The notes under the pieces were generated by a model. It saw nothing but the letters and a program-made list of their open reading frames with translations. It was not told where the DNA came from and did no database searches. The position numbers and the translations under genes were made by a program. DNA of 15,362 nucleotides from a virus (lineage: Duplodnaviria; Heunggongvirae; Uroviricota; Caudoviricetes). This document shows positions 4,770 to 11,859 of this stretch, in pieces (the stretch's first letter is position 1; each line of letters starts with the position of its first letter). Location: IMG/VR virus record IMGVR_UViG_2721755498_000003; one strand, 5' to 3'.

Positions 4770-4827
4770 AAAAAGGGCGGCAGAGCAGTCACGGAGTAAA
4801 ACTGATACCGCCAAACGTCACCAGAAA
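4770..4827 (-). ncRNA. dicF: DicF small regulatory RNA (ftsZ-targeting sRNA) with intrinsic terminator
   Basis: Minus-strand sequence TTTCTGGTGACGTTTGGCGGTATCAGTTTTACTCCGTGACTGCTCTGCCGCCCTTTTT matches the DicF RNA as I recall it. It ends in a GGCGG...CCGCC hairpin followed by a T-run. Lies between ydfC and dicB. Confidence 0.8.
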
Positions 4828-8037: not shown

Positions 8038-8077
8038 GTGTTGATTTCAGGTCATGAGGTAATTTTAAGGGGGACTT

Positions 8078-8500
8078 GTGGCAAAAGTTTTTACACAAGA
8101 AGAGCGGGAAAAAATTAAATGGCAGGTGGTGGAACTCGTGCGCCAGAGCGGCCGTGAGACGTTACGGCAACTGGAAGCTAAAACAGGTGCGACTAGATAT
8201 CTGATGAGCGTTCTTGCCAGAGAGCTGGTAGCCAGTGGCGATGTATACAACTCCGGCTACGGGTTATTCCCCTCTGAACAGGCGCGTAAGGACTGGCAAA
8301 ACGCCCGCAAAAAACTCTCGAGGGCAAAGGTGAAGAAACCTGCTGTGGTTGATCCGGACCTTATCTGGTCATCACCTGACGGAGAAATACGTCGCTACGA
8401 CAGTCGCCTAAACATAATCTGTCGCGAGTGCCGGAAGAGCGAAGTTATGCAGCGCATACTGGCTTTCTATCAGGGTAATTTTCAGGACGTGGCGCAGTGA
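8078..8500 (+). CDS. Hypothetical phage protein (140 aa), possible winged-helix DNA-binding protein
   Basis: GTG start at 8078 with a strong RBS (TAAGGGGGA) 4 nt upstream. Its stop overlaps the start of the next ORF in a GTGA arrangement. No motif I can assign with confidence. Confidence 0.6.
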   Translation: MAKVFTQEEREKIKWQVVELVRQSGRETLRQLEAKTGATRYLMSVLARELVASGDVYNSGYGLFPSEQARKDWQNARKKLSRAKVKKPAVVDPDLIWSSPDGEIRRYDSRLNIICRECRKSEVMQRILAFYQGNFQDVAQ

Positions 8501-8853
8501 GTGCACCGGCAACCATTCTTGATATGTGCTGTGGCAGCCGCATGTTCTGGTTCGATAAGTCTGACAAACGGGCGATATTCAGCGATATCAGAAAAGAAGG
8601 ATACACATTACGCAATGGGAGACGCTTGATTATCAGCCCTGACATTATCGCAGATTTTCGTGCATTATCATTTGCAGACGCATCTTTTTCGATGGTTGTA
8701 TTAGACCCTCCGCATCTTGAGCGTGTTGGTGATAACGCCTGGATGGGAAAGAAATATGGACGGCTGAATAAAGATGCCTGGCGTGATGATTTGCGACAGA
8801 GATTTAAAGAAGCTTTTCGGGTGTTGAGGCCGCACGGCGTTCTGATTTTTTAA
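8497..8853 (+). pseudogene. Beta-class N6A/N4C DNA methyltransferase, N-terminal fragment (3'-truncated)
   Basis: FSMVVLDPPHLERVGDNAW...RFKEAFRVLRPHGVLIF matches the beta-class layout (hydrophobic run, DPPY-type motif, then RVLKPGG-type motif), with His replacing the usual aromatic residue. The ORF stops 3 codons after that motif. No FxGxG AdoMet-binding region follows in any frame. Confidence 0.5.
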
Positions 8854-9115
8854 TGGAATGAAACGCAAATACCGGTAAGCCAGATTCTGGCACTGACAGA
8901 TAGAAAGCCTGTTATCTGTCAACGAACAGGGAAAAAACGATAAAACCCACTGGATTATTTTTATGAAAGAGGCATCCAGTGAGTAGATTCGTAAGGTTAC
9001 AGATACGTATATCTGAATAATTAAATTCAGTTCTGTAAATAAAACTTAATCCTTAACCGGATGGATTTCTGCACCCTCAGAACATCAGGAGGCCGCCCGA
9101 AAGGGCGGTAGTGAA

Positions 9116-9757
9116 ATGCGAAAGTTCAAAATTATTATTGAAACGGAAATAGCTGGTGGAGATTTTGAGGATGTATTCGAAGTGGACGATAACGCAACAC
9201 CTGATGAAATTCATGACGGAGCATAAGAAATTTTCTTTAACTACTGCAATTACTCATACCACGAAATAAAAGACGATGAGGAAGAACAAAGTGGCTGATT
9301 TTTGTTCAGCTAAATATAACATCAGTTTTGAAGAGCGGGATGAACTATTAATGGACTATGGTGAATTACGCGGTGGAAGTGCTGCTGATGTCGAATCCTA
9401 GCGTGATGACTATGAAGCGGGAAAAACTCCGGTCGAAGCATATTGTGATGAGTGGGGCGATGAATGAGCGAGATTAATTATCAGGAAGGGCATGAAACGG
9501 CGGGGCAAGCAAAACCAGTGGCATGGCGATATCGCTACGTGAAAAAAGCGTTACGGACTTTCAGGGGAAGTAGTGGTCTGGTGACTGGAAATATGTACCG
9601 AAAAAAGAGGATTGTAACGACAGGCCGAACTATCAAATTCAGGCCTTATTCACTGCCTCACCAGTCCCGGTTACATCAGAAGAACTGGTTAAAGCTGTGC
9701 ACTTTTATGAACAACTAAAACGCGAAAATCCACCAACATCCGGCAACTAGATTAATG
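9116..9757 (+). pseudogene. Frameshifted/interrupted remnants of small acidic phage ORFs
   Basis: Protein-like reading frames are split by stops and frame changes: 9116-9226 (MRKFKIIIETEIAGGDFEDVFEVDDNATPDEIHDGA), an in-frame continuation to 9298, 9276-9401, 9464-9718, and a +1 frame reading ...DWKYVPKKEDCNDRPNYQIQALFTASPVPVTSEELVKAVHFYEQLKRENPPTSGN ending at 9750. Confidence 0.3.
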
Positions 9758-10004
9758 GATTAACTATGTCGGTTAAACGACCAGCCAACTGAAAAAGCGG
9801 AAACCTGATTACAGGTTGCCAGATAAGGCAATGAGCTACCTGGCGCGGAACGGACTGATAAGTATGGGGAATGTTTTACGATGAACCTTTAGACTAAAGA
9901 GTTTGTAACGCTATGTAAGTGATTTTTTCTGGTTTAGATGTTTATATGTCCGGCCAAATTGAGGTGTGTTTAAATGTAATTGCACATTGATTGTAGGAGG
10001 AATA

Positions 10005-10184: not shown

Positions 10185-10518
10185 ATACAGCGAACTCCAT
10201 TGGTTTAGTTGGATATTTACTGTGCTGGACAAAAACGGTTTGCGGGGAAATCTTAGTTAAGTAGAATGACTGCGGGTGCTTGAGGCTATCTGCCTCGGGC
10301 ATGGACACCAACGGCAGATAGAGAAAAGCCCCAGTTAACATTACGCGTCCTGCAAGACGCTTAACATTAATCTGAGGCCAATTTCATGCTAGACACATGT
10401 AGGTTAGCCTCTTACGTGCCGAAAGGCACGGAGAAGCAGGCTATTGTTAACACCAAGCTGTAATGTCCCCTTTGAACCATTCTAAAATGTCCCCAGACAA
10501 TTCTCTGGGGGATTTTTC

Positions 10519-11859
10519 ATGATCAAAGAGACTGTTACGATGAGTCATAAGGAACTCCACCGACTTCAGATTATTCAGGAGTCAATTAATCGACATATTA
10601 CTCAGGAACAAGCTGCGGCACGCATTGGCATTTCTATTCGGCAGGTTAAACGTCTGGTGCAACGGTATAGAAATGAAGGGCCTTCTGGTCTGGTTTCCCA
10701 CCGACGTGGAAAGCGTCCTAATAATTCCTTTTCTACTGAATTCAGAGCAACAGTAATTTCACTCCTCAAAGGCCGTTACGCTGATTTTGGACCTACGTTT
10801 GCGTGCGAAAAATTGCGCGAGATACACGGTTTATCTTTATCCGTTGAAACTCTCAGAAAGTGGATGATAGAAGAGGGGTTATGGCGTGAACGCCGTCGTA
10901 AAATTGCCCGTATATATCAACGCCGCATGCGACGACCATCTTACGGTGAACTGATCCAGATTGATGGCTCACCTCATGACTGGTTTGAAAATCGAGGCCC
11001 CAGATGTACACTGATCGTTTTCATTGATGATGCCACCAGTGCGTTGATGGCGTTGCGTTTTGTGCCTGCTGAAACAACCCGGGCTTACATGGAAACCCTC
11101 CGGGGTTACCTTAATGATCATGGCGTACCGCTCGCTCTCTACTCTGATAGACACAGTATATTCAGGGTAAATAACCCAGAGCGGGAAGGTGAGCTGACCC
11201 AGTTCACTCGTGCGATAAAGACACTGGGCATCGAGCCAATCCATGCCAACAGCCCGCAGGCAAAAGGGCGGGTAGAGCGCGCCAATCAGACACTACAGGA
11301 CAGGCTGGTCAAAGAAATGCGGCTTCAGAATATCAGTGATATTGAAACAGCAAATGCATGGTTGCCGACCTTTATTGAAGCCTATAACAACCGGTTCGCT
11401 ACGTCGCCTCGTACTACTGATAATGCTCATCTTGATGTGCACCATTCTGAAGAGGAACTGGGTTATATCTTCAGCCTACAGGCGAAGCGCGTTCTGTCTA
11501 AAAATCTCACTTTCCAGTACAAAAGCAGTGCGTTTCAGGTACGCAGTGAGAGCCGGGGATATCGACTTAGGCATTCGGTTGTTACTGTATGCGAGAACTT
11601 TGACGGTGAAATTAACGTTCTGTATGACGGGAAAGCGCTGGGCTGGGAAAAGTATGTTGATGGCCCGGAGCCTATACCACTGGATGATGAAAAGAGTGTC
11701 CATGAACGAGTGGATAATGCCCGTATTGATTTACGCTCAAAATACTATGTTAAACCTAAAGCTGACCATCCCTGGCTTACGCGCCGAACGCAAAGTCATC
11801 AGCAAGTTAAGCCCCCGAAGTTACCTAAAAAGAAGCCTGATCCCGATAAAAAAGATTGA
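10519..11859 (+). CDS. DDE transposase with N-terminal HTH and rve-type integrase core (single-ORF IS, ISNCY/IS1202-like)
   Basis: 446-aa ORF with RBS GGGGGA 7 nt upstream. HTH region QEQAAARIGISIRQVKRLV. Catalytic triad candidates: D in IQIDGSPHDW, D in LYSDRHSIF, E in KGRVERANQTLQ. Basic Lys/Pro-rich C-terminal tail. Family assignment is from memory, not a search. Confidence 0.85.
   Translation: MIKETVTMSHKELHRLQIIQESINRHITQEQAAARIGISIRQVKRLVQRYRNEGPSGLVSHRRGKRPNNSFSTEFRATVISLLKGRYADFGPTFACEKLREIHGLSLSVETLRKWMIEEGLWRERRRKIARIYQRRMRRPSYGELIQIDGSPHDWFENRGPRCTLIVFIDDATSALMALRFVPAETTRAYMETLRGYLNDHGVPLALYSDRHSIFRVNNPEREGELTQFTRAIKTLGIEPIHANSPQAKGRVERANQTLQDRLVKEMRLQNISDIETANAWLPTFIEAYNNRFATSPRTTDNAHLDVHHSEEELGYIFSLQAKRVLSKNLTFQYKSSAFQVRSESRGYRLRHSVVTVCENFDGEINVLYDGKALGWEKYVDGPEPIPLDDEKSVHERVDNARIDLRSKYYVKPKADHPWLTRRTQSHQQVKPPKLPKKKPDPDKKD

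Follow-up and report, generated by a model that had tools for sequence, protein, structure and literature searches.

What kind of gene ended in the short methyltransferase-like reading frame described here, what shortened it, and does the remaining frame still encode something useful? The window, as we call the whole stretch of 15,362 nucleotides that was analysed (IMG/VR virus record IMGVR_UViG_2721755498_000003, Caudoviricetes), carries on its plus strand a gene for a protein of 140 amino acids and, overlapping its end, a frame of 118 codons. An initial annotation, made from the letters alone, interpreted this second frame as the N-terminal half of a beta-class N6A/N4C DNA methyltransferase, cut off at a deletion or recombination junction. 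Our analysis makes it very probable that the frame is instead the 5′ part of a decayed gene for a class I methyltransferase of about 162 amino acids, which follows an intact lygF gene in a Rac/Qin-like lambdoid prophage of Escherichia coli and was killed by a stop codon and an insertion.

Both open reading frames (ORFs) and their GTGA overlap are present as first described (Table 1), and the strong ribosome-binding site noted for the 140-aa gene was found as the Shine-Dalgarno-like sequence AAGGGGGA. In the second frame, the sequence ILDMCCGSR corresponds to residues 7–15 (8515–8541) and is located N-terminal to DPPH, VVLDPPH corresponds to residues 67–73 and FRVLRPHGVLIF to residues 107–118. 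The frame had been said to run on for three more codons, whereas the stop codon TAA comes directly after the residues ...LIF. Three ORFs of the minus strand (8065–8250, 8445–8645 and 8701–8922) are antisense to conserved coding sequence, and we found no pointers to them. A terminator-like hairpin at 8819–8842, ending in the T-run that has become longer by the A-to-T change, matches the consensus weakly and was not treated as functional.

Table 1. Features of the lygF/methyltransferase interval, in window coordinates.
Feature	Position	Strand	Remarks
Shine-Dalgarno-like sequence of lygF, AAGGGGGA	8067–8074	+	3 nt 5′ of the GTG; direct sequence reading
lygF ORF	8078–8500	+	GTG start, 140 aa, TGA stop
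5′ methyltransferase ORF	8497–8853	+	GTG start, 118 codons; WP_001310834.1 in some RefSeq genomes
GTGA overlap	8497–8500	+	start codon GTG of the methyltransferase gene shares bases with the lygF stop codon TGA; translational coupling
Whole methyltransferase pseudogene	8497–8986	+	internal stop and frameshift; relic of a class I SAM-dependent enzyme of about 162 aa
Motif I (SAM-binding loop), LDMCCGSR	8518–8541	+	residues 8–15, 5′ of DPPH
Motif IV, DPPH	8704–8715	+	residues 70–73; invariant across the family
Nonsense codon TAA	8851–8853	+	replaces AAA, the codon of the invariant Lys119 in FKWNE
Frameshift site GGGAAAAAA	8929–8937	+	1-nt insertion relative to the nearest intact alleles
C-terminal remnant NDKTHWIIFMKEASSE*	8936–8986	+	+1 frame; last beta-strand of the fold

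Prophage setting and the upstream gene

Between positions 8040 and 9000 the window is 99.3% identical to Escherichia phage PhiR42_1, which comes from E. coli ECOR13. In this phage, genes for an integrase, an excisionase and the RecE exonuclease VIII come first, on the minus strand, and are followed by cI, cro/DicC, a cII/YdaT-like gene, genes for an O-like replication protein and LygF, and a gene annotated as ‘methyltransferase protein’, after which come an insertion sequence (IS), flxA, relBE, a hok-like gene, rem and Q. The ORFs of the window are arranged in the same order. The antisense small RNA DicF was detected at 4775–4826 on the minus strand (Rfam RF00039, 76.7 bits, full length), which confirms the Qin/Rac-like nature of the left arm, and a sok-type antitoxin RNA of a hok/sok locus at 10274–10445 on the plus strand (Rfam RF01794, 104 bits). 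The gene order shared with PhiR42_1, together with DicF and the sok-type RNA, shows the window to be the early region of a lambdoid prophage of Rac/Qin type; the lygF/methyltransferase interval closes the rightward early operon, in the place occupied in lambda by ren and the nin genes.

About 75 nt 3′ of the sok-type RNA, an ORF of 446 aa (10519–11859, plus strand; HTH_28 and rve_3) encodes an IS transposase, a layout resembling that of the hok loci of E. coli K-12 with flanking IS elements. Two more genes located 3′ of the methyltransferase relic are decayed: a DUF7167 gene (9116–9298, plus strand) has an internal stop in the RefSeq copies, in which a hypothetical gene (9464–9883, plus strand) is also marked as ‘frameshifted; internal stop’. 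The whole nin-equivalent region is eroding.

The 140-aa protein, which the initial annotation had left as unknown, belongs to the DUF977 family (Pfam PF06163; 99 bits against a cut-off of 22.1, E = 3e-28), its residues 2–136 covering the full length of the 134-position profile. It is annotated as LygF/DUF977 in PhiR42_1 and as ‘DUF977 family protein’ in RefSeq (WP_001151262.1), and in the PHROGs database it matches phrog_142, ‘Ren-like exclusion protein’ (E = 4.2e-47). The gene looks intact and lies directly 3′ of the O-like replication gene; lambda ren, likewise, comes directly after replication genes. The BLASTP similarity between LygF and lambda Ren (E = 2e-6) is confined to a C-terminal segment of 20 aa (NIICRECRKSEVMQRILAFY versus NLVFKECRQSAAMKRVLAVY). 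DUF977 was described in 2009 as a winged-helix DNA-binding domain (PMC2686095), and our literature search on LygF/DUF977 returned nothing beyond that note.

The two genes had also been proposed to form a co-expressed module. Each of 80 related IMG/VR viral loci (L007–L086) encodes a relative of the enzyme, in a few cases a truncated one. The start codon shares bases with the preceding stop codon (GTGA or ATGA) in most of these loci and in all those of E. coli type, whatever the upstream gene, and a GGAGG is usually found 5′ of the overlap. The maintenance of this overlap makes coupling a conserved property of the methyltransferase cassette. LygF is encoded upstream in only 15 of the 80 loci; in other E. 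coli genomes of RefSeq, ead/Ea22-like and YdaT-family proteins adjoin the methyltransferase, and in Stx2c prophages its gene is found close to the left genome end. Pairing with LygF is thus optional, and what remains of the proposed module is the translational coupling through the conserved overlap, not a fixed pair of genes.

Family and fold of the methyltransferase

The assignment to the beta class had to be abandoned, because motif I is located 5′ of motif IV, the reconstructed protein obtains 17.3 bits with the Pfam profile N6_N4_Mtase (PF01555), for a cut-off of 26.7, and this profile matches none of 62 diverse relatives. By contrast, Methyltransf_11 matches 39 of these 62 proteins (best E = 3.7e-10) and Methyltransf_25 matches 22; the 118-aa ORF itself passes the Methyltransf_11 cut-off (22.7 versus 21.2 bits). 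In the family profile built from the 62 relatives, the segment iLDacCGs aligns with motif I of PH0226, VLDLACGVG (E = 1e-5), and L8, D9, C12 and G13 are each conserved in at least 90% of the family. As is characteristic of class I enzymes, this glycine-rich motif is followed by an invariant acidic residue, D30, at the end of strand 2, and the structural model has a Rossmann-like seven-stranded fold resembling solved methyltransferases. It is literally true, as had been remarked, that no FxGxG motif occurs 3′ of the ORF in any frame; this is misleading as a sign of loss, since the glycine-rich SAM motif sits 5′ of DPPH.

Across the family, the residues D30, R32, P48, D70-P71-P72-H73, E105, R108, K119, W120 and P138 are invariant down to about 40% identity. 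The histidine of DPPH, previously regarded as an unusual replacement of the aromatic residue, is accordingly a hallmark of the family and no local substitution, and the residue that was turned into a stop codon, K119, is itself conserved throughout.

The family is large, with 2030 clusters at 50% identity (E ≤ 1e-3). The intact homologue matches over its full length phrog_954, ‘DNA methyltransferase’ (E = 3.2e-88), and the PADLOC model MTase_II (PDLC03288, E = 2.4e-71), and the orphan methyltransferase model of PADLOC-DB (oMTase, PDLC03730) also matches the family over the full length. NCBIfam has no specific family for the methyltransferase. Searches of PDB sequences with the single sequence and with the family profile returned only generic class I matches, the best being PH0226, with neither a close relative nor a clue to the substrate, and no experimental paper on the family turned up in literature searches on the DPPH motif and on orphan methylases encoded by lambdoid prophages. 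A target-recognition domain could not be accommodated in a protein of about 160 aa. One subgroup (P0009, P0018 and P0064; about 248–251 aa) possesses a C-terminal extension of about 88 aa that has no precomputed Pfam assignment, and other relatives have N-terminal extensions of 50–80 aa. The motif (D/N/S)PP(aromatic/His) marks the methylation of an exocyclic amino group. Together with the names given to the family in databases and its phage context, the DPPH motif suggests that the substrate would be DNA. The role may be self-protection against restriction.

In the structural model, which is of medium confidence and weak over residues 1–30 and 71–90, strand 5 is formed by residues 110–119, a helix by residues 127–131, and strands 6 and 7 by residues 138–143 and 150–156. 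The 118-aa product stops at the last residue of strand 5 and is devoid of the FKWNE motif and of the final beta-hairpin (strands 6 and 7 of seven). Because these elements are missing, it is most likely inactive; it would probably be unstable as well.

Lesions, spread and decay of the window gene

As reference for the DNA alignment we used the intact gene of the Stx2c phage Stx2c_EH0430, an ORF of 175 aa (164 aa from the conserved GTG). The window gene is colinear with it from the start codon to a stop at 8986, and its DNA is 87–88% identical to that of intact genes over the whole length. Codon 119 is AAA in the intact genes and TAA in the window. A second lesion, 26 codons after the nonsense codon, is one extra base in GGGAAAAAA, for which the nearest intact alleles have GGAAAAAA; these alleles read ACAGGAAAAAACGAT at the run, encoding TGKND, and the outcome of the frameshift is ...TGKKR* instead of ...TGKNDKTHW.... 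Translation in frame after the TAA gives WNETQIPVSQILALTDRKPVICQRTGKKR, and the +1 frame gives NDKTHWIIFMKEASSE up to 8986. The 133 nt located 3′ of the stop codon are colinear with the intact genes and encode the normal C-terminus (WNETQIPV...KTHWIIFMKE): this sequence is the missing C-terminus of the same methyltransferase gene and is not foreign. What had been read as a deletion or recombination junction near 8853 is an AAA-to-TAA change, accompanied by a 1-nt insertion.

Intact homologues are 157–175 aa long among the best full-length matches of the 7080 proteins returned by the database search, and the closest of them (P0001) has 162 aa and 88% identity. The view that the ORF is a truncated methyltransferase relic was therefore correct, its full-length homologues being clearly longer than 118 aa. 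In the homologues, the sites of the disabling lesions hold sense codons in the proper frame, and the 3′ remnant can still be aligned. With TAA in place of K119, W120 and P138 beyond the stop, a frameshift further on and several invariant residues replaced, the window copy is a pseudogene of its family.

To follow this allele in complete E. coli genomes we used a 40-mer that seeds a match only if the T of TAA is present, and an AAA version of it for comparison. The TAA allele occurs in 474 of 5426 genomes, including ATCC 8739, once in each, always in the chromosome and with at least 99% identity, and the AAA 40-mer was found in 386 genomes. Copies of the window gene with 95% identity or more occur in 479 records, so the nonsense codon is present in essentially all of this close lineage. 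The lesions are thus old, have been inherited and cannot be put down to sequencing errors. The exact 118-aa protein is encoded on at least 1000 contigs. A rare metagenomic variant in ENA contigs (P0008/P0136) has GAA (Glu) at codon 119 and keeps the frameshift, in the background of an allele that has also lost R76 and L99; such a change from stop to sense is to be expected from drift in a dead gene.

In strain CFSAN064036, RefSeq has the identical sequence under the label ‘SAM-dependent methyltransferase; frameshifted; internal stop’, and a 98.8% identical copy in strain C21-2 carries the same label. The pseudogene status is already known from this public annotation. In other RefSeq genomes the 118-aa ORF is the protein WP_001310834.1, ‘class I SAM-dependent methyltransferase’, and the annotation of one and the same allele (loci L004–L006) is inconsistent, being pseudogene in one case and protein in another. 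Because of this inconsistency, surveys of E. coli methylomes or restriction-modification systems may overcount methyltransferases.

Decay extends beyond the two lesions. An alignment of 42 intact relatives (71–93% identity) contains 65 invariant columns, and the window copy departs from five of them (C39R, D40N, P58S, F69L and G102R), in addition to K119, whereas intact members, each left out in turn, depart from zero to two. This excess of changes at invariant sites speaks for relaxed constraint, which the dN/dS ratios given below do not. The Shine-Dalgarno sequence GGAGG found 5′ of intact genes has become GGACG in the truncated lineage, within 8483–8500 of the window. Substitutions are clustered at 8593–8616 (residues 33–40), where the window has KEGYTLRN and the family KEEHTLCD, with four of eight residues changed, two of them invariant; this cluster could be due to local drift or to a short stretch acquired by recombination with a divergent allele.

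Pairwise dN/dS ratios, calculated by the Nei-Gojobori method, show no sign of relaxed selection, with a median of 0.15 between the window gene and 15 intact genes and of 0.14 among intact genes. Since the ratio is not raised, the gene may have been inactivated late compared with its split from the intact lineages (dS 0.3–0.6). The two alleles present in the truncated lineage differ by three synonymous and three non-synonymous changes, too few for a selection test.

The same gene has been independently truncated elsewhere, to 77 aa in phage HannyBb (L002, 3458–3691) and to 94 aa in three IMG/VR loci (L043, L044 and L046), and PHROGs 11564, 6151 and 7811 look as if they had been built from N- and C-terminal fragments of the methyltransferase gene. 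It seems that this gene decays often.

Alternative explanations and comparison with known systems

In the explanation that we favour, the gene is part of an early operon with the order cro/dicC, cII/YdaT-like gene, O-like replication gene, lygF and methyltransferase gene, and the enzyme was translated by coupling from the GTG that overlaps the preceding stop codon, presumably early in the lytic growth of phages with an intact copy. The ancestral enzyme, of about 162 aa, had a class I fold with an N-terminal motif I and the invariant DPPH and FKWNE motifs, and no target-recognition domain. It would probably methylate an exocyclic amino group, most likely on DNA, acting as an orphan methylase that protects the phage's own genome. 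In the window, the change of Lys119 to TAA, the 1-nt insertion, the weakening of GGAGG to GGACG and the replacement of five invariant residues have left a dead gene, and these lesions, which are old, have been inherited by nearly the whole lineage of copies at least 95% identical. It is unlikely that the intact relatives, instead of being sequence-specific DNA methylases, are non-specific amino-methyltransferases of DNA, RNA or protein, used for host takeover or anti-restriction, and that the 118-aa remnant could keep a SAM-binding or regulatory role.

A related proposal, that the 118-aa fragment is a repurposed functional protein, for instance SAM-binding or regulatory, which has been kept for its usefulness, appears very unlikely to us. 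Admittedly, 474 genomes retain the ORF with its start codon and its coupling to lygF, the pairwise dN/dS is not raised, and many genomes carry the RefSeq protein WP_001310834.1. Such a protein would, however, be missing two of seven strands and the invariant FKWNE motif, have five invariant residues replaced (a sister allele is without the invariant R76 too) and be translated from a Shine-Dalgarno sequence weakened from GGAGG to GGACG. A prophage present once per chromosome and passed on vertically accounts for how widespread the fragment is, genes next to it are pseudogenes as well, and in other phages the same gene is truncated at different positions.

The remaining alternatives concern the way in which the frame ends. 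That a deletion or recombination event near 8853 took away the C-terminal half of a beta-class enzyme, with a 3′ FxGxG motif, is hardly credible: it is true that the ORF stops at 8853 and that none of the frames beyond it contains a glycine-rich motif, but the 133 nt after the stop are colinear with intact genes and encode a normal C-terminus, motif I is located upstream, at residues 8–15, and N6_N4_Mtase remains below threshold with the reconstructed protein and matches 0 of 62 relatives. We give equally little credence to the production of a full-length enzyme by readthrough of the TAA combined with a frameshift or transcriptional slippage at GGGAAAAAA. Slippage is conceivable in the homopolymer run (8929–8937) that contains the frameshift, yet the run has just six A, two independent recoding events would be required, TAA is the tightest stop codon, intact relatives are without such an arrangement and invariant residues have been lost too. 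The chance that faulty sequencing or assembly of this one record produced the stop codon and the frameshift is practically nil; one of the two lesions does lie in a homopolymer run, but the TAA 40-mer is present at 99% identity or more in 474 independent complete genomes, and both lesions also occur in PhiR42_1 and in the three RefSeq loci examined.

The decayed, formerly full-length class I gene that we favour makes this locus a case of routine accessory-gene decay in a domesticated E. coli prophage, and as such it matters little. The intact family, which has no target-recognition domain, is very common in enterobacterial prophages.

Compared with lambda Ren, LygF occupies a similar position just after the replication genes, its gene overlaps a neighbouring gene as ren does, and the two proteins have in common a conserved C-terminal CRECRxSxxMxRxLAxY (E = 2e-6) and membership in PHROG 142. 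Ren has 96 aa and LygF 140 aa, with a winged-helix region corresponding to Pfam DUF977. The order of motifs in the methyltransferase, motif I before motif IV, recalls RNA amino-methyltransferases with a (D/N)PP(F/Y) motif, such as Trm11/Trm14/TrmN (m2G), the UPF0020 m4,2C synthase and the RsmD-like HI0767. The window family differs from these enzymes in having no RNA-binding domain (THUMP or similar) and shows no significant sequence similarity to them, and its phage context and database names would point to DNA. With beta-class N6A/N4C enzymes (PF01555; M.RsrI, TTHA0409) it shares a catalytic motif of the (D/S)PP(Y/F/W/H) type; unlike them, in which the order is IV-TRD-I, it has motif I followed by IV, no TRD, an intact length of about 160 aa and a Pfam score below threshold. 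The closest system is the PHROG 954 family itself, represented for instance by the 162–175-aa gene of Stx2c_EH0430. The window copy differs from it by the nonsense codon at K119, the 1-nt frameshift, the weakened ribosome-binding site and the five replaced invariant residues, and resembles it in having 86–88% amino-acid identity over the reconstructed length, the motifs LDMCCGS, DPPH, FKWNE and KTHW, a GTG start overlapping the upstream stop codon and a place in a lambdoid early operon.
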